DNA of 32,000 nucleotides from Candidatus Scalindua sp. (GCA_031316235.1 JALDRA010000001.1:3000001-3032000), one strand, 5' to 3'. Counted from the stretch's first letter, positions 3,421 to 30,421 are shown. The notes: generated by a model from the letters alone, not told the origin. Program-made: numbers and translations.

Positions 3421-5016
3421 TCAGTTACGTTTTTTCTGACTCTTCTTCGCCTTTGAAAAGGATGGGCCAACCCCTTGTTTTCTCTTTTTAAAGTAAGATA
3501 ATAACGTTTCTGCCTCATGGAAAGGGAGTGTCACAAAGGAGAACTTATCGAGGATTTGAACGTCGCGTATTTTTTCATTTGAGATACCGCACTTTTCTTT
3601 GATAACATTCACCAGTTTTTTACGTGTGAAACCGTCCTGTTTGCCATGGGTGACGAAGAGACGTGTTTTTCCTTTCATATCAACAACTACATTTTCTATC
3701 TTTGTATAGCTTGTCTCGTCCAGCTCGTCCTGAAAGGCATGTTGTAAAAGGGCTGCCAAAATATTCACTGGCTCATTATTTTCTAAAAGCTCCCTGGACA
3801 TTTCGAGATATCCACTCCTTGGAGAGGATTTTACAATGTCTTCAAGGTCGACCTTAATCCTGTTTTTTTTAATGTTGATGATATCCGAAACCTCGGGCAG
3901 CTTCGCTTTACGAATATCTGTTTTTGCTTCTCTCTTAATAAATTGTAATTTTCTGTATTCTTCAGGAGTGATAAATGTTATGGCATTTCCCCCTTTACCC
4001 GCCCGGCCCGTACGGCCGATTCTGTGAACATATGATTCCGGATCCTGGGGCAGAGAATAGTTGATCACGTGGGTAAGGTTCTGCACGTCTATTCCCCGGG
4101 CAGCAACATCGGTTGCTACAAGGATATTGAGGAGTTGTTTTTTAAATTTTTGTAATATTTTTTCCCGCTGGCTCTGTGACATATCTCCATGCAAGGCATC
4201 GGCATCATATCCTCGCTCCATCAGGTGGTTAGCGACAGTATCAACATTTATCTTGGTTCTGCAGAAGACCAGTCCATAAAACTCCTCTTCAATGTCTATG
4301 ATTCTACAAAGAGCCTCAAATTTATCTGCAGCAGATACCTCAAAATAGATCTGGTCAGTCTTATTTGTGGTGAGCTGACCGGTCGTTACCTTGAGAATAT
4401 CGTATTCGCCCATGTATTTTTTAGCAATCTTGATGATTTCCGGCGGCATCGTGGCAGAAAATAGCATCGTACGCTTGTCAGGACCGGTATTTTCTATTAT
4501 CTCGCTGACATCTTCAAGGAAACCCATGTTCAGCATTTCATCAGCTTCATCCAATACAAGAAACGATATTTTGTCTAACTTCAATGTGCGGCGTTTAAGA
4601 TGGTCAATTATCCTTCCGGGGGTACCAACTACCACATCTATCCCTTTCTTAAGGCTTCTGAGCTGCAGGTCCATCGATTGTCCACCGTAGATGGGAATAA
4701 TGCTCAAATTTTTCTTTCCCTTTAATGAATTAATCTCTTCAGCCACCTGGGTAGCCAATTCTCTCGTTGGAGTGAGAACGAGGGCCTGTACAGACTTTGA
4801 CTTTTCTGTCAAGAGTTCTAGTATGGGAAGACCGAAGGCGGCAGTCTTGCCCGTACCGGTTTGTGCTTGCCCGACAATATCTTTCTTTCCTGACAATATG
4901 GCGGGTATGGTCTTTGCCTGTATCGGTGTTGGTTCTTCAAATCCCTTTTGCTTCAGGACACTTAATACTCTTTTAGATAGACCTAAATCTTCAAATGATT
5001 TTATCACAGATTCCAT
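3421..5016 (-). CDS. deaD: DEAD-box ATP-dependent RNA helicase (DeaD/CsdA/CshA-like) with a DbpA-type C-terminal RNA-binding domain
   Basis: The motifs present are the Q motif (FEEPTPIQ), motif I (AQTGTGKT), PTRELA, DEAD, SAT and HRIGRTGRAG. The C-terminus is DbpA-like (RLFVTHGKQDGFTRKKLVNVI...FVTLPFHEAE) and ends in a basic tail. An AGGAGG Shine-Dalgarno sequence is present. Confidence 0.93.
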   Translation of the reverse strand: MESVIKSFEDLGLSKRVLSVLKQKGFEEPTPIQAKTIPAILSGKKDIVGQAQTGTGKTAAFGLPILELLTEKSKSVQALVLTPTRELATQVAEEINSLKGKKNLSIIPIYGGQSMDLQLRSLKKGIDVVVGTPGRIIDHLKRRTLKLDKISFLVLDEADEMLNMGFLEDVSEIIENTGPDKRTMLFSATMPPEIIKIAKKYMGEYDILKVTTGQLTTNKTDQIYFEVSAADKFEALCRIIDIEEEFYGLVFCRTKINVDTVANHLMERGYDADALHGDMSQSQREKILQKFKKQLLNILVATDVAARGIDVQNLTHVINYSLPQDPESYVHRIGRTGRAGKGGNAITFITPEEYRKLQFIKREAKTDIRKAKLPEVSDIINIKKNRIKVDLEDIVKSSPRSGYLEMSRELLENNEPVNILAALLQHAFQDELDETSYTKIENVVVDMKGKTRLFVTHGKQDGFTRKKLVNVIKEKCGISNEKIRDVQILDKFSFVTLPFHEAETLLSYFKKRKQGVGPSFSKAKKSQKKRN

Positions 5017-5728
5017 TTCGTAATTGTGTTCCTCCTTACTTTCCAGCTATTATCCGTTAAGTCACCTTTTTTCCGGGTGAAAATAATGTAGGGTATCACC
5101 CTGAGAGAGGTAATGTCAAATTAAAAAAAAGATGCGAGAATAGTATTGTAAATAATGTGTATGCAATAGCCTACAGAAAAAACGTAGAATTTTCAATTGG
5201 TTAACTCTCTATCAGGATTTTCTTTTAATATACTGTAGGTTAACCCATTCAACACTCTACCGTATTTTTATTACTGCATTTTGATAAGATATTTATACAT
5301 ATATAGTTATTTTTATTTCCCATACTGGTATACTATTCGCTGATCAGGTATGCTTGGAAACGTGAAAAAAGCTTTGTTATTTTTTTCTGATTCCTTCGGA
5401 GGATTATTGGTAGTACGTTTCTCTCTATAGGTTAAGCGTATCCTGCTTCGCAACTCTCATAAAATTACTGCCACGTCTCCACTTGAATGGCTATTGTGTC
5501 CCCATGCCGGGTATCTGCCCGAATGGATTCATCCGTGCGGGTGTAATATGCACGTAAAACATGATCATGGAATTTCTCCGTACCTGCTCTTAATGACAGA
5601 TTGTTTCACGTGCCTTGCTGTCCTCTTCCATCCAGGAGCGATAATATTTCTTCCCCGCTGGTTTATCCCAAGGAAGCGGTGTGGCAGGTTTTTTTCGTTT
5701 ACAGGCTCATGTAAAGTGTTTTTGTGTT

Positions 5729-5842
5729 TATACTCATCTCATAGTGGTTTTCGGATAAAATCCGAGATAAATTTGAGCGAGTATACCTTCACCAGGATAT
5801 GGTTTCCGGTAAAACCGAAAACCATATCGGTTTTAGTATATA
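5729..5842 (+). repeat. Copy C (intact) of the structured repeat
   Basis: The sequence is TATACTCATCTCATAGTGGTTTTCGGATAAAATCCGAGATAAATTTGAGCGAGTATACCTTCACCAGGATATGGTTTCCGGTAAAACCGAAAACCATATCGGTTTTAGTATATA. It ends 37 nt upstream of the CapD-like start codon. Confidence 0.9.
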
Positions 5843-5878
5843 ACTGAAATAGTGAGGATTCTCTGAAACAGTACAGAA

Positions 5879-7945
5879 ATGATAGAGTTCCGAAAAGGTT
5901 TTTTGATTAAGAACAGGCGTATAGTGGTGACAGCCATTCATATCCTTCAGGTAGTGGTGGCGAATTATCTTGCCTTTCTCCTGAGATTTGAGACACCATT
6001 TTCGACTGTGTATGCAGACCAGCTGTTCCCTTCACTTCCTGTCCTGTTGACAATCCGCCTTGCCCTTTACCTTCAGGCGGGCATGTATAAAGATCTCTGG
6101 CGTTATTCAAGTATCAGCGACATGATCAGTATTATAAGGACGGTTGCAATCGGAAGTGTCGTATTCTTTGTGATAAACAGGTATTTCCTGGGGAGTACCT
6201 ACTATCCTCTCTCGGTGTACGTGCTTGAATGGATGCTGCTTCTGTTTATTTCCTGCGGGACCAGGCTTTTGATCAGGGTCTGTTTCAAGAAGTATCGAAG
6301 CTTTCAATCGTCAGCCAGAAAGATCCTGATTATTGGTACGACAGCTGGTGAAGCAATTGTACGGGATATGAAAAACAACCCGGGATCATCGTATAACCCG
6401 ATCGGGTTCATGGACGAAGACCCGTATAAAAAAGGGCTTGAGATACACGGTGTTCCCATCTTCGGTCAAATAAGCGGCCTGGCTGGCGTGATAAAGAAGC
6501 AGAAGCCTGATGAGATACTGATTTCAATGGTTTCAACGGACAGTAAAACGATTAAGAGTATCTATGACCAAAGTAAGCCCTTTAACATTCCTATCAAGAA
6601 ACTGCCCGGGATAAATGATATCCTTGTGGGCAATATTTCCGTGGAAGCGAGACTTGGTCAGCGTTTAATTGACGCCGGCATGGTGAAGGAAACCCAGATA
6701 CAGGAGGCCCTTGCCTTACAGAAGAATGAGGGGGGGATGCTGGGTTCGATACTGGTTCAAAGCGGGTATATCAAGGAGGAAGAGCTTTTTTCTTATCTTA
6801 CCGAGCAGAGCGGTATTTCCCGTATGAAACCGATATCGCTTGAAGATCTGATCCAGAGAGAGCAGGTGAGGTCTGACATACAATCAGTGCGGGAATTTAT
6901 CCAGGGGAAAACGGTGATGGTAACGGGGGCAGGCGGTTCGATAGGGTCTGAGCTGTGCCGTCAGTTAATTAAGTACAACCCCGCTCACCTGGTGCTCTAT
7001 GAGAGATATGAGAACAGTCTGTTTCATATAGATCATGAATTAAACCGTTTTGAAGAGAACAGGGCAAAGAAGAACTTTACGCCGGTGATAGGAGACATGC
7101 TGGATACCAGGAATCTGGAATATGTCTTTTCCACATACAGGCCTCAGATTATTTTTCATGCGGCGGCACACAAACATGTTCCCCTGTTAGAGCAGAACCC
7201 GCTGGAGGCGGTCAAGAACAATGTCTTCGGTACAAAAAATGTGATAGAAGCGGCGGTGAAGTACAATGCGGAGAGTTTTGTGCTGATCTCATCAGACAAG
7301 GCGGTAAACCCGACAAGTACCATGGGGGCCACGAAACGCATAGCCGAGTTTTTAACGATAGCGATGAATGCCTTTTCAAGTACAAAATTTTCAACCGTAC
7401 GGTTTGGAAATGTGCTGGGGAGTAATGGAAGTGTTATCAAGATCTTCGAGGAGCAGTTGAAGCGGGGAGGGCCATTAACGATTACGCATCCGGAGATAAA
7501 GAGGTTTTTCATGCTGATACCGGAGGCGATCCAGCTGGTTCTTATGGCGGCGGCGCTGAAGAAGGGTGGACAGATTCTGGTGCTTGATATGGGAGAGCAG
7601 ATAAAGATCGTAGAGCTTGCGGAGAATCTGATAAGGCTTTCGGGGTTTGTTCCTCATAAGGAGATTAAGATGGAGTTTACGGGTCTTCGCCCTGGTGAGA
7701 AGTTGTATGAAGAGCTGTTTGACAAATCGGAAAAGGTTATCAGCACGATGCATGAAAAGTTCTGGCTGACGATTCCTGAAACTCCTTCGATAGGGGAATT
7801 TAACAATCAGATTGCGGAACTTGAACGCATTGTTCGGGACAATGCAATAGACGAAGTAGTCTCGGCAATTAAGGACATCGTGCCAAGTTTTAAATGTGAT
7901 TACCACCATGAAACTGATCAGTCATTGTCGCAGAATACTGGATAA
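5879..7945 (+). CDS. Membrane-anchored polysaccharide biosynthesis nucleotide-sugar 4,6-dehydratase (CapD/PglF/WbpM family) carrying an inserted MshEN-like motif
   Basis: The ORF encodes 688 aa. It has four N-terminal TM helices, then a Rossmann-like domain (KILIIGTTAGEAIV...NPIGFMDEDP), then the SDR catalytic domain (VMVTGAGGSIGSEL...ISSDKAVNPTSTMGATKR). The insert at residues 258-310 is described in the findings. Confidence 0.92.
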   Translation: MIEFRKGFLIKNRRIVVTAIHILQVVVANYLAFLLRFETPFSTVYADQLFPSLPVLLTIRLALYLQAGMYKDLWRYSSISDMISIIRTVAIGSVVFFVINRYFLGSTYYPLSVYVLEWMLLLFISCGTRLLIRVCFKKYRSFQSSARKILIIGTTAGEAIVRDMKNNPGSSYNPIGFMDEDPYKKGLEIHGVPIFGQISGLAGVIKKQKPDEILISMVSTDSKTIKSIYDQSKPFNIPIKKLPGINDILVGNISVEARLGQRLIDAGMVKETQIQEALALQKNEGGMLGSILVQSGYIKEEELFSYLTEQSGISRMKPISLEDLIQREQVRSDIQSVREFIQGKTVMVTGAGGSIGSELCRQLIKYNPAHLVLYERYENSLFHIDHELNRFEENRAKKNFTPVIGDMLDTRNLEYVFSTYRPQIIFHAAAHKHVPLLEQNPLEAVKNNVFGTKNVIEAAVKYNAESFVLISSDKAVNPTSTMGATKRIAEFLTIAMNAFSSTKFSTVRFGNVLGSNGSVIKIFEEQLKRGGPLTITHPEIKRFFMLIPEAIQLVLMAAALKKGGQILVLDMGEQIKIVELAENLIRLSGFVPHKEIKMEFTGLRPGEKLYEELFDKSEKVISTMHEKFWLTIPETPSIGEFNNQIAELERIVRDNAIDEVVSAIKDIVPSFKCDYHHETDQSLSQNTG

Positions 7946-8022
7946 TTCAATCACTGAGGCTGATACCCCGGTTTGCAGCAAACTCTGCAATGATACAGCG
8001 GGTGAACGTTTGTATTAAAGGG

Positions 8023-9879
8023 CTACAACGAATCCTCTTCTTGTTTAAAAACCAACTTTTCCTGTTCGAAGCGTTCTGTAATCTCTTCCAGCGCTTCGTA
8101 CAGGTTGTTGATTTCGCTTCTGGTTTTCTTTACAGAGAGAGATAGTGCGGTGATGCTGTTTCCATCTTTTTCGTAGGACGCCTTTATGAGGGCTTCTGTG
8201 TCATTGTGAAGATGCTGTTCCAATTCGTCAATGGCTTTCTCGATCTTCTCTATCTTTTTTTTGTAAGGTGTGAGAGTTTTTGACCGTTTGGTAAAAAGTG
8301 CGGCACGCGCCTTTCTTGCATCCTTCTGGGTAATTGTCTTCTGAGGTTTTGCCTGTATACTGGCCACTTTCTTTCCGAGCGTAATGCTCTCCTGGTCGTC
8401 CCAGCCGATCTGGTCAAGGAACTTTGCGTATCCGCCATAAAAGAGAAATGCCTTGTCATCTTGAAAGACAATCAACTTGTTTGCAATCTTGTGAAGAATA
8501 TATTCATTGTGCGTTACCATGACTACGGCACCCTCAAAAGAGGTGATAGCCTCAATCATAGCATCGCATGATTGAAGGTCCAGATGATGTGTGGGTTCGT
8601 CAAGCAGGAGAAGGTTGGTTGGTGATACCAGTATTTTACCGAACAAGACTCTGCATTTCTCTCCTCCTGAGAGGACATGTATCTTCTTGAGGGCGCTATC
8701 CCCTGAAAACATCATCGCACCGCAGATATCCCTGACTTTTCTCCGTTCGAGAAATGGGTTACTCAGTGAAATCTCTTCCTCGATTGTCAGTGTGTCGTTG
8801 AGGGTTGCGGTATTGGCTTGTTCATAGTATCCGATTTCTGCTTGCGGGTGGTTTGTAATCTTGCCCTCAACAGGGGCTAATCCGCCTGCCAGCAGTTTCA
8901 AGAGAGTCGTTTTCCCTTTTCCGTTTTGGCCTATGATGCCGATCCTGTCTCGGCTCTCGATAGCAAGATCGAGGTCGCTAAACAAATAGGGAGGTCTGCC
9001 ATCGTAGGAGAATGCCACCTTGTGTACTTCCTGCACATACTTGGCTCGAAAAGCAGCGGAACCAAACGAGAATGAAAGGATAGGGATTTTATCCAGTTTC
9101 TTATTTATTTCCTGTTTTTCAAGGGTCTTGATCCTTGATTGTACCAGGCTCGCATGGCGTGCCTTTGCCCGGAAACTGTTAATGAACTGTTCTGCCTGCT
9201 TTCTCTTTTTCTCTTCGTTGAGACGCTCTTTTTCGTAAATTTCCTCTTCTTGGGCAATCCTCTCATAATACTCTTTTGTTGTACCCTGAATTTTTTTTAT
9301 CTTGGTCCGGTGGATGCCCATGATGTGTGTCGTCACCGTATCCATGAAACTCCTGTCATGGCTTATAATCATGATCTCATTTGGCCAGGAATTCAAAAAA
9401 TGTGTCAGCCAGCGGATAGAAATGATATCGAGAAAATTGGTGGGCTCATCAAGTAACAGTAAGTTTGGTTCGGAAACCAGGACTTTTGCCAGATTCAGGC
9501 GTATCTGGTAACCACCTGAGAATTCGGAGGGACTTCGATAGAAATCACCCTCTGAAAATCCAAGGCCTGAAAGGATCTTTTTGACCCTCCACTCTTCCTC
9601 TTTTTGATTCTCCTGCAGACCGCGACAGCCTTCTTCCAGGACTGTCGGCTTTGTAAAAGAGATATGCTGACTCAGATACCCAATGCGATAATCCTTTGGG
9701 ATCTTAATGGTACCCTCATCATAGTGTTCCTCGCCTGTGAGGAGCCGGAAAAGGGTTGTTTTCCCATGACCGTTTCTTCCTATGAGGCCAATTCGCTCAC
9801 GGGGGCTGAGACCAAAAGAGATGTGATTAAAGATGACGTGTCCGAAATACTGTTTACTGAGATTTTGTACAGAGATCAT
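8023..9879 (-). CDS. ABC-F family ATPase (Uup/YheS-like; two ABC cassettes, no TM domain, C-terminal coiled coil)
   Basis: There are two Walker A motifs (GRNGHGKTT, GQNGKGKTT), two signature motifs (FSGGYQIRL, LSGGEKCRV) and two Walker B motifs (LLLLDEPT twice). An inter-domain linker and a Lys/Glu-rich C-terminal coiled coil are present. The track ORF extends to 9972, but ABC-F proteins normally start at the MISVQNLSK-type N-terminus, which is the ATG at 9879. Confidence 0.9.
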   Translation of the reverse strand: MISVQNLSKQYFGHVIFNHISFGLSPRERIGLIGRNGHGKTTLFRLLTGEEHYDEGTIKIPKDYRIGYLSQHISFTKPTVLEEGCRGLQENQKEEEWRVKKILSGLGFSEGDFYRSPSEFSGGYQIRLNLAKVLVSEPNLLLLDEPTNFLDIISIRWLTHFLNSWPNEIMIISHDRSFMDTVTTHIMGIHRTKIKKIQGTTKEYYERIAQEEEIYEKERLNEEKKRKQAEQFINSFRAKARHASLVQSRIKTLEKQEINKKLDKIPILSFSFGSAAFRAKYVQEVHKVAFSYDGRPPYLFSDLDLAIESRDRIGIIGQNGKGKTTLLKLLAGGLAPVEGKITNHPQAEIGYYEQANTATLNDTLTIEEEISLSNPFLERRKVRDICGAMMFSGDSALKKIHVLSGGEKCRVLFGKILVSPTNLLLLDEPTHHLDLQSCDAMIEAITSFEGAVVMVTHNEYILHKIANKLIVFQDDKAFLFYGGYAKFLDQIGWDDQESITLGKKVASIQAKPQKTITQKDARKARAALFTKRSKTLTPYKKKIEKIEKAIDELEQHLHNDTEALIKASYEKDGNSITALSLSVKKTRSEINNLYEALEEITERFEQEKLVFKQEEDSL

Positions 9880-12373: not shown

Positions 12374-12388
12374 ACTTCAAAATTAAGA

Positions 12389-12493
12389 CTTATCTAGAGT
12401 GGTGGAGGGATCGGCCCTGAGAAACCACAGCAACCGATTTCTGCGTAATGCGGGAATATCGGTGCTAATTCCTACCTGATAGGGAAAGATAAG
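12389..12493 (+). promoter_or_regulatory. SAM-I (S-box) riboswitch aptamer
   Basis: CTTATCTAGAGTGGTGGAGGGATCGGCCCTGAGAAACCACAGCAACCGATTT...ATCGGTGCTAATTCCTACCTGATAGGGAAAGATAAG carries all the conserved S-box blocks: GGUGGAGGGA, GGCCC, GAxAAACC, GCAACC, GGUGCUAAUUCC and the P1 closing strand AGAUAAG. Confidence 0.95.
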
Positions 12494-12500
12494 ATTAGGA

Positions 12501-12557: not shown

Positions 12558-13805
12558 ATGGGTTTTGTCAAAGGACTTAAATGCAGGGAATGTGGAAAAG
12601 ACTATCCGAAGGAACCAATTCATGTTTGCAGCTTCTGTTTTGGTCCCCTGGAGGTTGATTACGAGTACGATGAAATAGGGAAAGTGATAAGTCGGGAGCT
12701 GATTGAGGCTCGAAAACCAACTATGTGGAGGTACAAAGAGCTCTTACCTCTGGATAGTGAACCGACAGTTGGTGCACAAGTTGGCTTTACTCCATTAGTA
12801 AGAGCTGATAATTTAGCGAGAAAACTCGGGGTAGATGAGCTCTATGTGAAAAATGACTCTGTTAACTTTCCCACATTTTCTTTCAAGGACAGAGTAGTTT
12901 CCGCTGCCCTTTCAAAAGCCAAGGAGTTTGGTTTTAAGACTGTGGCTTGTGCAACGACGGGTAATCTGGGAAACTCTGTTGCTGCGCAGGCGGTTCAGGG
13001 AAATCTGGAGAGCTATATCATCATGCCTGCCAATCTGGAGCAGGGAAAGGTGCTCGGCACCTCTATTTACGGGACAAATGTTATCGGCATAAACGGTGGT
13101 AATTATGATGGTGTGAACAGGTTGTGCTCTGAAATTTCAGATAAGTATGGCTGGGCATTTGCAAATATCAATCTCCGCCCGTTTTACGCTGAAGGTTCAA
13201 AGACCTACGGCTATGAGATTGTGGAACAGCTTGGCTGGAAAGCTCCAAAGCACGTGGTAGTGCCTATGGCCGGTGGTTCACTGATCATCAAAATAGGGAA
13301 AGCGATAAAGGAGTTTGAGAAACTAGGTTTGATTAATGGTTCAGATACGAAACTTTATGGTGCACAGGCTTCAGGATCCTCACCGATTTCAACTGCAGTG
13401 AAAAATGGAAGTGAATTTATTAAGCCGGTTAAACCCGATACAATAGCGCACTCTATTGCCATTGGGAATCCTGCGGATGGTTATTATTCCATAAAGGCAA
13501 TTCATAATAGCGGTGGCTGGGCTGAAGATGTTACTGATGATGAGTTAATCGAGGGGATAAAGCTCCTTGCCTCAACAGAAGGGATATTTACCGAGACTGC
13601 GGGTGGTGTAACCGTGGCCGTTACAAAAAAACTTCTGGAACAGGAAAGGATACCAAGGAACGAGTCAATCGTAATTTGTATTACGGGGAACGGCCTTAAA
13701 ACGCAGGAGGCGGTTTTGGGCAGGGTAAAACAACCCAGTATTATCAAACCTACTTTAGAAGATTTTGTCGCATTTATGGAGAAGAAAGAGTGTCTGGCCG
13801 TGTGA
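12558..13805 (+). CDS. Threonine synthase homologue (PLP fold type II) with an N-terminal zinc ribbon; candidate O-phosphohomoserine-dependent homocysteine synthase
   Basis: The ORF encodes 415 aa. The N-terminus is a Cys4 ribbon (CRECGKDY...CSFCFGPLEV). The PLP-lysine motif is TFSFKDR, and the glycine loop is GNLGNS...MAGGS. A GGAGG Shine-Dalgarno sequence is present. The gene lies directly downstream of the SAM riboswitch. Confidence 0.85.
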   Translation: MGFVKGLKCRECGKDYPKEPIHVCSFCFGPLEVDYEYDEIGKVISRELIEARKPTMWRYKELLPLDSEPTVGAQVGFTPLVRADNLARKLGVDELYVKNDSVNFPTFSFKDRVVSAALSKAKEFGFKTVACATTGNLGNSVAAQAVQGNLESYIIMPANLEQGKVLGTSIYGTNVIGINGGNYDGVNRLCSEISDKYGWAFANINLRPFYAEGSKTYGYEIVEQLGWKAPKHVVVPMAGGSLIIKIGKAIKEFEKLGLINGSDTKLYGAQASGSSPISTAVKNGSEFIKPVKPDTIAHSIAIGNPADGYYSIKAIHNSGGWAEDVTDDELIEGIKLLASTEGIFTETAGGVTVAVTKKLLEQERIPRNESIVICITGNGLKTQEAVLGRVKQPSIIKPTLEDFVAFMEKKECLAV

Positions 13806-16037: not shown

Positions 16038-16150
16038 TATATACTGAAACCAGATCCTGGTGAAGGTATCCCCGGACAAAAAGCGCCGAGGACTTTACTC
16101 ACTCAATTTTATCTCGGATTTTATCCAAAATCCAGTATGAGATGAGTATA
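16038..16150 (-). repeat. Copy D of the structured repeat; carries a 27-nt insertion and lacks the core of the 3' hairpin
   Basis: The reverse complement reads TATACTCATCTCATACTGGATTTTGGATAAAATCCGAGATAAAATTGAGTGAGTA[AAGTCCTCGGCGCTTTTTGTCCGGGGA]TACCTTCACCAGGATCTGGTTT-CAGTATATA. The 5' module is identical to copy E. Confidence 0.85.
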
Positions 16151-16232
16151 TCAAATTCATACTAACAGGGTGGTAAGCTTGTAAGTCTTTATATTTTCAG
16201 TACCATTAATTTTCTTTAAGGGACGGTGTAAA

Positions 16233-16550: not shown

Positions 16551-16561
16551 GTTTTTCCTGT

Positions 16562-16674
16562 TATATTCAGCTCATACTGGATTTTGGATAAAATCCGAGA
16601 TAAAATTGAGCGAGTATACCTTCACCAGGATCTGGTTTCCGGTAAAACCGAAAACCAGATCGGTTTTAGTATAT
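16562..16674 (+). repeat. Copy E (intact) of the structured repeat
   Basis: The sequence is TATATTCAGCTCATACTGGATTTTGGATAAAATCCGAGATAAAATTGAGCGAGTATACCTTCACCAGGATCTGGTTTCCGGTAAAACCGAAAACCAGATCGGTTTTAGTATAT. It starts 12 nt after the zinc-ribbon stop codon and is in inverted orientation relative to copy D. Confidence 0.9.
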
Positions 16675-19976: not shown

Positions 19977-20124
19977 AAACAACAACCGTAATGTCATGTC
20001 CCGTCAAGCTACGGCTATGACAGGGTGTTTTATCTATGGCAGATTTACCAAGAGAAAGCGATGGTTTCATTCAAGCCTGCTTGGCATTGGCAAGGCTCCG
20101 ATTCAGGGGATAAATATGTTACTA

Positions 20125-20238
20125 TGTATACGGAAACCGATTTGGTCTTAGATTTTTCTAAAAACCAAAGACTGGTTAATGGTATATTTGCTCCGTTTTT
20201 TCCGTATTTTATCCGAAAATCATTATGAGATGAGTATA
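20125..20238 (-). repeat. Copy F of the structured repeat; strongly diverged
   Basis: The reverse complement reads TATACTCATCTCATAATGATTTTCGGATAAAATACGGAAAAAACGGAGCAAATATACCATTAACCAGTCTTTGGTTTTTAGAAAAATCTAAGACCAAATCGGTTTCCGTATACA. The termini and the TTTGGT/ACCAAA pairing are retained, but the interior has drifted. Confidence 0.7.
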
Positions 20239-27552: not shown

Positions 27553-28857
27553 GTGAAAACCCATTTTAACACACCAATTCTTCAGATAGCCTTAGACTTT
27601 GTCAATTTGCGACGTGCAGTAAATGTAGCCCGGGAAGCGGTAAAGGCAGGCGTTGACTGGGTCGAGGTGGGCACCCCTTTGATTAAGAGTGAGGGGCTGA
27701 ATGCTGTCAGGGTGCTGCGGGAAGAATTTCCTTCGCTTACGATAGTAGCTGATATGAAGACAATGGATGCGGGGCGCATAGAAGTGGAATCCGCAGCCAA
27801 GGCCGGAGCCGATGTTTCAGTCGTGATGGGAGAAGCCTCTGAGGGGACGATAAGAGAGTGTATTTATGCGGGGCGAAATTATGGTATTAAGATATGGGTT
27901 GATTTTCTGACTCAAACCGATTTCGCTGAGCGTGCGATGAGGGCGGAGGAATTAGGAGCAGACTTTATCGGTGTGCATACGCCTATTGATGACCAGATGA
28001 GGGGTATGCATCCGTTTGAGAGCTTAAAACAGATTTGCTCAAAGGTTACTATCCCGGTATCAGTTGCAGGAGGTATTAACTCTGAGAGTGCCGTGGATGC
28101 AGTAAATGCCGGGGCAAGCATTGTTGTTGTCGGCGGAGCTATCTGTAAGGCGGTAAGTATAAGCGGTGCAGTTGCTGACCTGAAAAAGGCTCTCCGTGAT
28201 AAGAAAAAGATTTCGGTAACTCTTTATAAAAGAGTTGCAGGTGCGGATGTATACGAGGCATTGAAAAAAGTTTCAACTGCTAACATTTCGGATGGAGGGC
28301 ATCGGTTAAAGGGTATCAGCAATCTGCAGTGTCTCAGCTTGGAAGCGAAGATGGTTGGGCAGGCTTTTACCGTCCGTACTTACCCCGGAGACTGGGCAAA
28401 ACCCGTAGAGGCTATCGATAAAGCTGAAAAGGGGAGTGTGATTGTTGTTGATTCCGGGGGCTCTGGGCCTGCTGTTTGGGGGGAGCTGGCTACGCAGAGT
28501 GCTCTCCAGAGAGGGATCGCTGGTGTGGTGGTAAATGGGGCTGTACGGGACAGCTGCGAAATTAGAAAATTAAAACTCCCTACTTTTGCAAAATCAGTAA
28601 TGCCACATGCCGGAGAGCCTAAAGGGTTCGGGGAGATGGGGGTACCGTTAACAATTTCCGGAATAACGATTAAAAGTGGGGACTGGATTGTTGGTGACGA
28701 AGATGGACTGATGGTTATTCCACAACAAAAAGCAAAAGAGATGGCGAATTTAGCAATGGATTGCTGTGAAAGAGAAAACAGGCTGCGTGAAGAGATACTG
28801 GCGAATAAAACTTCTCTTGGGGAGGTAATGGAATTATTGAGATGGGAAAAAAGATAA
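27553..28857 (+). CDS. Fusion protein: 3-hexulose-6-phosphate synthase-like (OMPdecase/HUMPS fold) N-domain plus RraA-like (class II aldolase/decarboxylase fold) C-domain
   Basis: The N-terminal half reads LQIALDF...VDWVEVGTPLIKSEG...IVADMKTMDAG...GADFIGVHT...VAGGI. The C-terminal half reads GDWAKPVEAID...GSVIVVDSGG...AVWGELATQSALQRGIAGVVVNGAVRD...LPTFAK. The start codon is GTG. Confidence 0.85.
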   Translation: MKTHFNTPILQIALDFVNLRRAVNVAREAVKAGVDWVEVGTPLIKSEGLNAVRVLREEFPSLTIVADMKTMDAGRIEVESAAKAGADVSVVMGEASEGTIRECIYAGRNYGIKIWVDFLTQTDFAERAMRAEELGADFIGVHTPIDDQMRGMHPFESLKQICSKVTIPVSVAGGINSESAVDAVNAGASIVVVGGAICKAVSISGAVADLKKALRDKKKISVTLYKRVAGADVYEALKKVSTANISDGGHRLKGISNLQCLSLEAKMVGQAFTVRTYPGDWAKPVEAIDKAEKGSVIVVDSGGSGPAVWGELATQSALQRGIAGVVVNGAVRDSCEIRKLKLPTFAKSVMPHAGEPKGFGEMGVPLTISGITIKSGDWIVGDEDGLMVIPQQKAKEMANLAMDCCERENRLREEILANKTSLGEVMELLRWEKR

Positions 28858-28878: not shown

Positions 28879-29379
28879 ATGAAATGTGACTCATGTGGCA
28901 AAAAAATCGCTACCGTTCATCTTACTGAAATAGTTGGAACCGAAAAAAAAGAAAAGCATCTATGTGAGGAGTGTGCTCACAATGTAACAAACCATTTTCC
29001 TAAGGCTCCCTCTCCTTCAGATATACTGACGAGTATCATTAATCAGGTTTCGCCAGAGATTGAAGAAATGTCTAAGACTACCTGTCCGGTATGCGATCTC
29101 TCTTACCTGGAGTTTAGATCTCAGGGGCGTCTCGGGTGTCCCATGGATTATGATGCGTTTCAAAAAGGCCTTCTGCCTCTTATAGAGAGAATGCATGGAA
29201 GTTCCCAGCACGTGGGAAAAGTACCTGCAAATGCAAGTGAAGAAGTTATTAAGAAGAACCAGCTGATACAATTGCGTAAGGAATTAAACAGGGCCGTCCA
29301 AAAAGAAGATTACGAAATGGCCGCACAGATTAGGGATAAAATTTATGGACTTTCAGGGAACGTAGATAATGGAGATTAA
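28879..29379 (+). CDS. mcsA: McsA-like zinc-finger / UVR-domain protein (activator of protein arginine kinase)
   Basis: Zinc-finger cysteines are present (CDSCGKK...HLCEECA, then CPVCD...GRLGCP). A C-terminal UVR motif follows (LRKELNRAVQKEDYEMAAQIRDKI). The gene overlaps mcsB by 11 nt. Confidence 0.85.
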   Translation: MKCDSCGKKIATVHLTEIVGTEKKEKHLCEECAHNVTNHFPKAPSPSDILTSIINQVSPEIEEMSKTTCPVCDLSYLEFRSQGRLGCPMDYDAFQKGLLPLIERMHGSSQHVGKVPANASEEVIKKNQLIQLRKELNRAVQKEDYEMAAQIRDKIYGLSGNVDNGD

Positions 29380-30421
29380 AGATCTTTCTGACAATACTGG
29401 CGAATGGTTGAGGGGCACTGGAAAAGAATCGGATATCGTAATTAGCAGCAGGATACGATTGGCGAGAAATGTTACGGGATTTCCATTCCTTTTAAGAGCT
29501 AATTTAAGGCAGAGAAAGGAGGTAGAGTCTTTACTGAAAGAGACTATCATTAAATCTGAGATAACCAAGGAACTGTCATACGTAAACCTGAACACGGTAA
29601 CAACGATTGATAAATTGTTTTTGGTAGAACGGCATCTGATTAGCAAAGAACATGCTGATGGTGATGGAGAAAGAGGGGTTGCATTCGGAAAAACAGAAAC
29701 CATCAGTTTGATGATAAATGAAGAAGATCATTTGCGTATCCAGGTTATCCGTGCAGGCCTTGAGTTAAAAAATACATGGGAAGTGATAGATGAAATTGAT
29801 AACTGCTTGAGCGAAAAATTAAGCTTTGCTTTTTCGTCGCGGTTTGGATACTTAACGGCCTGTCCGACAAATGTCGGCACGGGAATGCGCGCTTCGGTTA
29901 TGTTGCATCTTCCTGCGTTAGGTATGACAAAACATATAGACAAAGTCTTTAATGCTGTTGGGAAGCTTGGCCTGGTAGTCAGAGGATTATATGGTGAGGG
30001 TACAAAGGTTTCAGGTGATTTGTACCAGATTTCGAATCAGTTCACTTTAGGAAAGACCGAGAACGAGATTTTAGCTATTATTGAAAGTGTGATTCCGCGT
30101 ATCACAAGCTATGAACGGATGGCAAGGAAAGCACTTGTTTTAGAAAGTAAGGAACAGTTAGAGGATAGAATTTGGAGATCATACGGTATGCTCAAGGCAG
30201 CACGAATGATTACATCGGAAGAGATACTGCAGTTACTTTCCCAAGTTCGTATGGGAGTGAACCTGGGTTTAATTGATGACATAGAAATGAAGACTCTAAA
30301 CGAACTTTTTATTCTAACACTTCCGGGGCATCTGCAGAAATTGCAGGGATGTGAGTTAGATTCTACTCAGAGAAATATTATTCGAGCCTCCTTTGTAAGG
30401 AAGAGGCTAGAAGACTTATAA
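29369..30421 (+). CDS. mcsB: Protein arginine kinase (ATP:guanido phosphotransferase family)
   Basis: The motifs present are SSRIRLARNVTGFPF, INEEDHLRIQ, GYLTACPTNVGTGMRASVMLHLP and GLYGEG...YQISNQ. Confidence 0.92.
   Translation: MEIKDLSDNTGEWLRGTGKESDIVISSRIRLARNVTGFPFLLRANLRQRKEVESLLKETIIKSEITKELSYVNLNTVTTIDKLFLVERHLISKEHADGDGERGVAFGKTETISLMINEEDHLRIQVIRAGLELKNTWEVIDEIDNCLSEKLSFAFSSRFGYLTACPTNVGTGMRASVMLHLPALGMTKHIDKVFNAVGKLGLVVRGLYGEGTKVSGDLYQISNQFTLGKTENEILAIIESVIPRITSYERMARKALVLESKEQLEDRIWRSYGMLKAARMITSEEILQLLSQVRMGVNLGLIDDIEMKTLNELFILTLPGHLQKLQGCELDSTQRNIIRASFVRKRLEDL

Follow-up and report, generated by a model that had tools for sequence, protein, structure and literature searches.

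A candidate c-di-GMP receptor module inside a PglF/WbpM-type sugar-nucleotide dehydratase of Candidatus Scalindua and its relatives

The stretch of 32,000 nucleotides (nt) from Candidatus Scalindua sp. analyzed here (GCA_031316235.1, JALDRA010000001.1:3000001-3032000; henceforth, the window, with positions counted from its first letter) contains a complete open reading frame (ORF) for a membrane-anchored sugar-nucleotide 4,6-dehydratase of the PglF/WbpM/CapD family, in which an insertion between the Rossmann-like and catalytic domains carries a tandem motif of the kind found in MshEN receptors of c-di-GMP, i.e., cyclic dimeric GMP (Table 1). A first-pass annotation of the window had placed such a motif in the linker of this enzyme and proposed that it would put the first committed step of a bacillosamine/N-acetylquinovosamine (QuiNAc)-type sugar pathway under direct c-di-GMP control. 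Below, we describe the host enzyme and the inserted module, trace the latter across related proteins and weigh the explanations for its presence.

Table 1. Coordinates of the dehydratase gene and of the features recognized within it (aa, amino acids; TM, transmembrane; AF2, AlphaFold2 model; SDR, short-chain dehydrogenase/reductase).
Feature	Residues	Position in the window	Strand	Basis or remark
Complete ORF, 688 aa		5879..7945	+	Membrane-anchored PglF/WbpM/CapD-family sugar-nucleotide 4,6-dehydratase with insert
N-terminal membrane region, four predicted TM helices	1-140	5879..6298	+	AF2 and hydropathy
Rossmann-like CoA_binding_3 domain, cytoplasmic	~145-250	6311..6628	+	Pfam and AF2
58-residue insertion	V255-G312	6641..6814	+	Single clean gap in five insert-less CapD-family proteins
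MshEN_N motif I, RLGQRLIDAGMVKETQIQEALALQ	258-281	6650..6721	+	NF053729 positions 1-24; aligns with V. cholerae MshE R9-Q32
Five-residue spacer KNEGG	282-286	6722..6736	+	Length equal to that of the published spacer
MshEN_N motif II, MLGSILVQSGYIKEEELFSYLTEQ	287-310	6737..6808	+	NF053729 positions 30-53; aligns with V. cholerae MshE R38-Q61
Catalytic SDR domain, Polysacc_synt_2	346-629	6914..7765	+	Pfam, phmmer and Foldseek
NAD(P)-binding motif TGAGGSIG	349-356	6923..6946	+	(Near-)invariant in 121 clade members
Active-site signature	S472-D473-K474 ... M482-x3-K486	7292..7336	+	PglF/WbpM 'TDK...Mx3K' type, no catalytic Tyr

The host protein displays the features that define the PglF/WbpM/CapD family, namely, a multi-span membrane anchor followed by a CoA_binding_3 domain, an SDR domain with the TGxxGxxG motif and an active-site signature devoid of Tyr. 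In the full-length AF2 model, which was built on 77 aligned sequences and has a mean predicted local distance difference test (pLDDT) score of 81.9, the TM helices span residues 13-37, 43-67, 79-103, and 111-135 (with hydropathy peaks at 14-37, 79-101, and 113-136), and beta and alpha elements alternate over residues 147-241. The Pfam scan matched PF13727 (CoA_binding_3) at residues 68-233 (E = 1.1e-15) and PF02719 (Polysacc_synt_2) with E = 2.3e-116, PglF was matched by phmmer with E = 1.5e-89 in an alignment beginning at 'PISLEDL', and the best Foldseek matches of the model were the PglF structures 5BJU-5BJY (TM-score 0.93, 43% identity). The Tyr-less TDK...Mx3K signature and the mechanism of enzymes of the PglF/WbpM type have been reviewed (PMC8987622). 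In the window protein, SDK (positions 7292-7300, residues 472-474) is found where PglF has TDK with the catalytic Thr395. Across the 121 sequences of the insert-bearing clade described below, D473, K474, M482, and K486 are invariant, and position 472 is occupied by Thr in 113 and by Ser in 8 (the window protein plus 7 of its close relatives). A Thr-to-Ser variant of PglF has a crystal structure (5BJW). With both signatures present and the structural match to PglF, sequence and model support the proposed identification of the host as a UDP-N-acetylglucosamine (UDP-GlcNAc) 4,6-dehydratase of the PglF/WbpM type with intact catalytic machinery, and conversion of UDP-GlcNAc is predicted.

Positions 6650-6808 (+) translate into RLGQRLIDAGMVKETQIQEALALQ-KNEGG-MLGSILVQSGYIKEEELFSYLTEQ, corresponding to residues 258-310 of the 688-aa ORF. 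The NCBIfam model NF053729.1 ("c-di-GMP motif, MshE-related"), a dedicated 53-position profile with a curated cut-off of 38 bits, aligned to this segment over its entire length (1-53/53) with a score of 60.0 bits (E = 1.4e-16). In a phmmer comparison of a 97-residue query with all PDB sequences, only the N-terminal domains of MshE, PilB, and PilF were matched, among them MshE of V. cholerae (VcMshE; 5HTL, E = 1e-8) and PilF (6F8L, E = 1.5e-20). Models of NfrB (NF008411 and NF012033), EpsG (TIGR03029), and PilB also align to the segment through their MshEN regions. Each copy of the published motif reads RLGxx(L/V/I)(L/V/I)xxG(L/V/I)(L/V/I)xxxxLxxxLxxQ. Motif I fits the relaxed pattern of Wang et al., and motif II departs from it at position 1 only, where it has Met; the remaining deviations from the motif are conservative and comprise I274 in place of Leu as well as M268 and Y297, which follow the turn Gly. 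The match is far beyond chance, and it is virtually certain that residues 258-310 are a true MshEN_N homolog. The tandem motif reported by the first-pass annotation is thus borne out by the profile and the PDB sequence matches as well as by the predicted fold described below.

The Pfam check suggested by that annotation proved to be an invalid test. PF05157 (MshEN/T2SSE_N) matched neither the protein nor the segment, even at E <= 10, the sole Pfam match of the segment being a weak one to DUF4388. In the other scanned proteins matched by the profile of the insert, PF05157 matches start where the 53-residue motif ends and lie downstream only (for instance, the motif occupies residues 95-156 and PF05157 residues 147-231 of protein P0167), which suggests that this model covers the C-terminal (T2SSE_N1) subdomain. 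Because PF05157 appears to model a subdomain that is absent here, its silence is not evidence against the motif, and we rejected the reading of the negative Pfam result as a refutation of MshEN identity; the profile match that had been sought came instead from NF053729. With the catalytic lead-in beginning 8 residues past Q310, there is no MshEN_C (T2SSE_N1) subdomain and the segment is not a full MshEN; judging from its sequence, the window protein falls into the class that Wang et al. 2016 termed "MshEN_N only" (PMC5013675, Suppl. Table 4). Since PF05157 did not detect the segment, annotation censuses based on Pfam would miss receptors of this class.

The insert is predicted to fold as a small helical bundle. 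In the full-length AF2 model, it forms four helices (residues 253-265, 271-284, 288-294, and 300-311) bounded by flexible, low-confidence junctions (pLDDT <50 at residues 250-254 and averages of 66-73 in ten-residue blocks across residues ~311-330), and the segment modeled alone yields four helices with a core pLDDT of ~90. When the segment was compared with the PDB using Foldseek, the nine best matches were all c-di-GMP-bound structures of MshE or of the GSPII-B domain of PilF (probability 0.95-1.00, identity 36-41%), and the probability fell to 0.14 at the tenth match. Eight of the nine are crystal structures, which superimpose with a root-mean-square deviation (rmsd) of 1.1-1.6 Å over 53-54 residues; the match to a nuclear magnetic resonance model has an rmsd of 6.4 Å. 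The shortness of the query leaves these matches with weak E-values (0.03-0.7).

Comparison with insert-less relatives delineates the insertion precisely. Five full-length CapD-family proteins encoded by annotated plasmids of Legionella, B. thuringiensis, Leptospira, Deinococcus, and Rhizobium (34-39% identical to the window protein) run directly from 'G(N/K)I/V..' to '..V(E/N)(I/L)EDLL', so that the gap is flanked by conserved sequences on either side ("..LP.l.di..Gni" before and "..v.lEDLLgR" after). In the window protein, the flanks are as previously described, with 'GNISVEA' upstream and 'RMKPISLEDLIQRE...VMVTGAGGSIGSEL' downstream, and the crystallized PglF construct begins with "DISIEDLL", which aligns with P317-ISLEDL. 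A tblastn search of 72,556 plasmids with the segment yielded annotated matches to NfrB-like transferases and one pilus/secretion ATPase and none under a CapD-type dehydratase annotation, with many further matches in unannotated DNA. Because the insert-less relatives show a clean gap and the plasmid search finds no annotated CapD-type match, the sequence comparison identifies the insert as a discrete domain insertion rather than an ordinary linker of the family, and its 58 residues account for the excess length of about 60 aa noted in the first-pass annotation.

The insert is not peculiar to the window gene but defines a conserved clade. It is present without gaps in all of the 120 best database homologs (56-97% identical, ~690 aa), and NF053729 matches every one of the 75 distinct segments of the clade. 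The nearest relatives (80-97% identity) come from metagenome-assembled genomes (MAGs) labeled Ca. Scalindua or "Planctomycetes," and the remaining homologs bear the names Nitrospirota, Thermodesulfovibrionales, Ca. Sulfobium, or WS5. A scan of genomes, one per species, with the back-translated pattern [MI][KQ][PS]ISL[EV]DLL detected at least 32 loci, including 29 in Nitrospirota or its subgroups (mostly Thermodesulfovibrionia), two in Scalindua/Scalinduaceae, and one in an Anaerolineae MAG; 32 species is a lower bound since the pattern is narrow and would miss even the …DLI of the window protein. Upon clustering at 50%, only a few representatives of the architecture remain (P0087, P0125, P0146, P0151, and P0254), which suggests a single origin of the insertion within one clade. 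A search of the representative library with the segment profile was topped by MshEN_N proteins with 3-9 repeats and does not provide a count of the CapD-type architecture. In the source annotations, clade members are called nothing more specific than "polysaccharide biosynthesis protein" or "FlaA1/EpsC-like NDP-sugar epimerase."

Within the clade, G260, L278, Q281, G289, L292, and L307 are invariant in the 121 members, and the spacer is strongly conserved as K-x-E-G-G. The mean pairwise identity of the insert (0.65) lies between those of the Rossmann-like (0.59) and SDR (0.73) domains, and comparison with a syntenic Scalindua locus (L001) gave ratios of nonsynonymous to synonymous substitution rates (dN/dS) of 0.23 for the insert and 0.05 for the catalytic domain. 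As judged from these sequences, the insert is under purifying selection.

Most residues involved in c-di-GMP binding by VcMshE have identical counterparts in the insert. In the alignment to 5HTL, R9/L10/G11, G18, and L25/L29/Q32 of VcMshE correspond to R258/L259/G260, G267, and I274/L278/Q281 in the first repeat, and R38/L39/G40, G47, and L54/L58/Q61 correspond to M287/L288/G289, G296, and L303/L307/Q310 in the second, such that all ligand-contacting or fold-critical positions are kept except for R38M and L25I. The hydrophobic triads L10-L54-L58 and L25-L29-L39 become L259-L303-L307 and I274-L278-L288, and Gly is present at both motif turns (G267 and G296). None of the eight substitutions (G11V, I19R, L29R, R38G, G40L, L54H, L58C, and Q61V) to which the loss of binding in XpsE has been ascribed (PMC5013675) occurs in the window protein. 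Furthermore, isolated VcMshEN_N(1-62) binds c-di-GMP with a dissociation constant (KD) of 0.35 µM (PMC5013675), showing that the C-terminal subdomain is not required for binding. As for the replacement of Arg by M287, the sole non-conservative change, Arg mutations in MshE alter the affinity at most 5-fold. In T. thermophilus PilF, the GSPII-B domain, which binds with a KD of 6 nM, natively has Leu196 at position 1 of motif II; L196R weakens binding 4-fold, whereas K167L at the equivalent position in repeat I tightens it (KD 2 nM), and the authors of that study widened the consensus to (R/K/L)LG… (PMC11731258). Given that PilF natively carries Leu at this position and that hydrophobic residues raise the affinity, M287 should be tolerable and is not a concern. 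By analogy with MshE and PilF, we are fairly confident that the segment binds c-di-GMP.

In Nitrospirota, the insert-bearing dehydratase is embedded in a co-directional cluster, in which genes for a Wza-like exporter, a Wzc-like co-polymerase/kinase, and a DnaJ-domain protein are followed by those for a fusion of a GFO/IDH/MocA oxidoreductase with a hexapeptide acetyltransferase, an aminotransferase of the DegT type, a small phosphoglycosyl transferase (PGT) of the Bac_transf type, the dehydratase, a sigma-54 response regulator, and further sugar-nucleotide enzymes; an UpxY antiterminator often precedes the cluster. The dehydratase gene adjoins that of the PGT in 17 of the 32 loci, and the metagenomic representative P0254 (897 aa) naturally combines Bac_transf, CoA_binding_3, the MshEN_N insert, and Polysacc_synt_2 in a single polypeptide. 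This fusion ties the dehydratase to a PglC-like priming transferase and argues that the two enzymes would work as a unit. Judging from gene content, the Nitrospirota context fits the PglE/PglD/PglC/PglF logic of bacillosamine/QuiNAc-type priming sugars. The proposed pathway is accordingly supported for the homologs, the loci of which contain the DegT, PGT, and acetyltransferase genes, but not by the window gene itself, since neither the window nor the syntenic locus L001 contains the aminotransferase, acetyltransferase, or PGT neighbors.

The regulatory surroundings of the clade were also surveyed. In many Nitrospirota loci (e.g., L007, L004, L008, L010, and L023), the gene directly after the dehydratase encodes a sigma-54-dependent response regulator with REC, AAA+, and HTH_8 domains. 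The co-occurrence of the UpxY-type NusG antiterminator and the sigma-54 regulator suggests layered transcriptional and post-translational control. No riboswitch, for c-di-GMP or any other ligand, was detected by Rfam upstream of the dehydratase gene, and a promoter and terminator scan of positions 5000-8100 revealed nothing exceeding the shuffled background. No second MshEN_N protein was found in the window or in the 32 related loci, where the hidden Markov model of the insert matches dehydratases only; the Wzc-like proteins adjoining the Nitrospirota homologs are devoid of the motif. We also considered whether the Nitrospirota clusters are PEP-CTERM/exosortase exopolysaccharide (EPS) loci, which would link the dehydratase to EpsG, and rejected this assignment, all matches to PEP-CTERM-family NCBIfam models being below the curated cut-offs.

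Like MshEN of MshE (5HTL) and GSPII-B of PilF (8PDK), the window segment consists of two 24-residue RLG...LxxxLxxQ motifs joined by a 5-residue spacer and adopts a predicted four-helix bundle; its identity to these domains is 38-41% over 53-54 residues (rmsd 1.1-1.4 Å), and, as in PilF, motif II opens with a hydrophobic residue. By contrast, the domains of MshE and PilF are N-terminal, are accompanied by MshEN_C/T2SSE_N1 and regulate secretion or pilus ATPases, whereas the window protein has the N-terminal subdomain only, located internally within a sugar-nucleotide dehydratase. Action of c-di-GMP through MshEN on polysaccharide enzymes has been described for NfrB and EpsG (PMC5013675). NfrB, the c-di-GMP-activated EPS synthase of E. 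coli, resembles the window protein in carrying an MshEN-type module on a membrane polysaccharide enzyme, and NfrB-like proteins were the closest plasmid-encoded matches to the segment. However, NfrB is a polymerizing GT2 glycosyltransferase with a full MshEN at its C-terminus, whereas the module of the window enzyme is limited to an internal MshEN_N, and the reaction under control would lie upstream, at the nucleotide-sugar precursor. In Methylobacillus sp. 12S, EpsG has an MshEN_N-only architecture and is encoded in an EPS locus, but its output is an AAA_31 ATPase of the bacterial tyrosine kinase (BY-kinase) type, a chain-length determinant, and its module is N-terminal.

On the enzyme side, PglF of C. 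jejuni, WbpM of P. aeruginosa, and CapD of S. aureus share with the window protein the TM region, CoA_binding_3, Polysacc_synt_2, and the Tyr-less site, and with its homologs the aminotransferase and PGT neighbors; unlike the window protein, they pass from the Rossmann-like domain to the 'I(S/E)(I/L)EDLL' lead-in with nothing in between, and no second-messenger regulation of these three enzymes was found in the literature searched. In functional terms, control of this metabolic step has its closest precedent in the phosphorylation of CapE, a soluble UDP-GlcNAc dehydratase of S. aureus, and of CapM, which places a post-translational checkpoint on a UDP-GlcNAc-consuming dehydratase and a priming transferase. 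The signal in that case is tyrosine phosphorylation by the CapAB BY-kinase rather than a nucleotide ligand, and CapD, the membrane enzyme of the PglF type, is not a CapAB target.

The fusions of MshEN_N tabulated by Wang et al. 2016 include AAA_31 (EpsG), CheX, Peptidase_M23, CheA, TrxB, and REC, and those of full MshEN include GT2 (NfrB), REC, HD-GYP, and protein kinase; no SDR or Polysacc_synt_2 protein is present in that table (PMC5013675). Full-text literature searches returned no report of MshEN in conjunction with PglF, WbpM, CapD, Polysacc_synt_2, or a dehydratase and nothing relevant linking c-di-GMP to bacillosamine or WbpM, in agreement with the first-pass annotation, the author of which knew of no characterized example. 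What we describe joins a receptor module and an enzyme, each already known, in a hitherto undescribed arrangement that implies a new regulatory point. The representative library also contains many uncharacterized proteins with 6-9 tandem MshEN_N-like units (P0121, P0122, P0130, P0135, P0136, P0164, and P0183), such as P0121 with 7 units in 397 aa, far exceeding the (MshEN_N)2 and (MshEN)4 architectures tabulated in 2016 (PMC5013675); such multi-unit proteins may serve as c-di-GMP 'sponges' or multivalent sensors.

By analogy with characterized MshEN proteins, we assign a probability of roughly 0.6 to the reading in which binding of c-di-GMP controls the output of the dehydratase, that is, the first committed step toward a cell-surface sugar. 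The insert of this inner-membrane enzyme would be a stand-alone MshEN_N bundle, the smallest part of MshE/PilB ATPases that binds c-di-GMP, linked flexibly to the Rossmann-like domain on the membrane side and to the catalytic domain on the other. Its two RLG-type motifs would clamp one c-di-GMP molecule as in 5HTL. Guanine O6/N7 would be read by the backbone amides of G260/Q261 and G289/S290, with R258 and M287 stacking on one face of each guanine and the triads I274-L278-L288 and L259-L303-L307 contacting the other. Entry of the ligand into PilF requires unwinding of the first turn of helix α1 (PMC11731258). The equivalent turn here would be the N-terminal junction with the Rossmann-like domain, and ligand binding could alter the tether in length or geometry and thereby the position of the catalytic domain, its oligomeric state, or its contacts with the membrane module or partners. 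The result would be a changed flux of UDP-GlcNAc into UDP-4-keto-6-deoxy-GlcNAc on the way to a di-deoxy amino sugar, which would in turn be loaded onto a lipid carrier by a PglC-like transferase, starting an EPS or another glycan. Activation at high c-di-GMP is the most likely direction, by analogy with NfrB and other EPS enzymes, and is the weakest step of the scheme.

Several observations weigh against control of the dehydratase by c-di-GMP, and some of them speak for other explanations. The pLDDT of the insert in the full-length model is only 66-78, and the direction of regulation rests purely on analogy. The window gene is solitary, lying between genes for a DEAD-box helicase and an ABC-F ATPase (the same neighbors as in L001), and the window contains no sugar-pathway or GGDEF/EAL genes; a literature search for diguanylate cyclases of Scalindua yielded no usable result. 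Moreover, truncated WbpM consisting of the catalytic domains is active alone, indicating that the N-terminal modules are dispensable for chemistry (PMC8987622). The latter finding favors an alternative in which c-di-GMP does bind but the output is assembly or localization, the module recruiting or releasing the PGT, the aminotransferase, or the Wzc-like co-polymerase such that channeling is gated while the catalytic efficiency (kcat/KM) is unchanged. The frequent adjacency of the dehydratase and PGT genes, the fusion of the two enzymes in one relative and the flexible tethering of the insert beside the membrane module point the same way. Yet the Scalindua gene adjoins no partner, and the insert is well placed for direct allostery, with the first structural element of the catalytic domain coming right after it; we regard this alternative as unlikely.

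It is also improbable that the insert is a degenerate MshEN_N that binds no nucleotide and is kept as a structural spacer or dimerization element, although several observations speak for it. Many MshEN domains, including those of XpsE and PA4526, have lost binding (PMC5013675), and the insert lacks MshEN_C, the subdomain that in VcMshE provides the ligand with D108. Repeat II of the window protein fails the published relaxed motif at position 1, with Met in place of Arg; the relaxed motif for repeat I is passed by only 27 of the 121 clade members, most of which have Asn or Asp instead of the motif-I turn Gly; and dN/dS is higher in the insert than in the catalytic domain. Nevertheless, the invariant residues of the clade are those of the ligand contacts and pocket (both RLG glycines, L278, Q281, L292, and L307) and not merely of the core, the inactivating changes of XpsE are all absent, a hydrophobic residue at the Arg position improves binding in PilF, and the window protein itself has Gly at both turns. 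In addition, Asn and Asp are good turn formers. Very improbable is that the module senses another nucleotide, such as 3',3'-cyclic GMP-AMP (cGAMP) or a different cyclic dinucleotide: VcMshEN does bind cGAMP weakly, but its binding of cyclic dimeric AMP is undetectable, and MshEN owes its guanine specificity to backbone amides in the conserved RLGx turn, a type of turn that both repeats of the window protein retain.

Known control of polysaccharide production by c-di-GMP is exerted through transcription factors, through synthases and co-polymerases such as BcsA, Alg44, PelD, PgaCD, and NfrB, and through EpsG of the BY-kinase type; no case of c-di-GMP acting on an enzyme of a nucleotide-sugar pathway was found in the literature searched. 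If c-di-GMP does control the dehydratase, regulation would occur at the first committed step of the priming sugar and not at transcription, polymerization, or export. The chances appear to be about even that c-di-GMP serves as a direct allosteric ligand of a nucleotide-sugar enzyme, with control at precursor supply forming a new tier of surface-glycan control. A sensor in the dehydratase would mean throttled withdrawal of UDP-GlcNAc from the pool shared with peptidoglycan, a logic that matches the phosphorylation checkpoints of the S. aureus capsule even though the signal differs. In anammox and Nitrospirota communities, c-di-GMP is known only as a correlate of EPS production and granulation in granular sludge, and the module would represent the first defined c-di-GMP receptor-to-output link in anammox bacteria (Scalindua) and Thermodesulfovibrionia and would offer a molecular entry point to the control of EPS and aggregation in anammox bacteria and Nitrospirota. 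The vaguely annotated proteins of the clade are, from their sequences, probably c-di-GMP receptors.

Other features of the window deserve mention. An intergenic repeat of ~115-125 nt is dispersed at positions 859-974, 2433-2556, 5718-5842, 16046-16153, 16551-16674, and 20123-20238, with one copy ending 36 nt upstream of the dehydratase start codon. The copies occur in both orientations, are 67-95% identical and have TATACT...AGTATA ends and internal palindromes such as CGGATAAAATCCG. The repeat matched no Rfam family at the gathering score and looks like either an element resembling miniature inverted-repeat transposable elements or repetitive extragenic palindromes, or a structured RNA. The only riboswitch in the window is a full-length S-adenosylmethionine riboswitch (RF00162, positions 12387-12495 (+), 78.9 bits), located upstream of an ORF for a pyridoxal 5'-phosphate-dependent (PALP) enzyme (12558-13805). 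Farther downstream, the ORF at 27553-28857 (+) encodes an orotidine 5'-monophosphate decarboxylase/HUMPS-like domain fused to an RraA-like aldolase domain and is followed, at 28879-30421 (+), by a McsA/McsB-like pair consisting of a UVR-motif protein and an ATP:guanido phosphotransferase.

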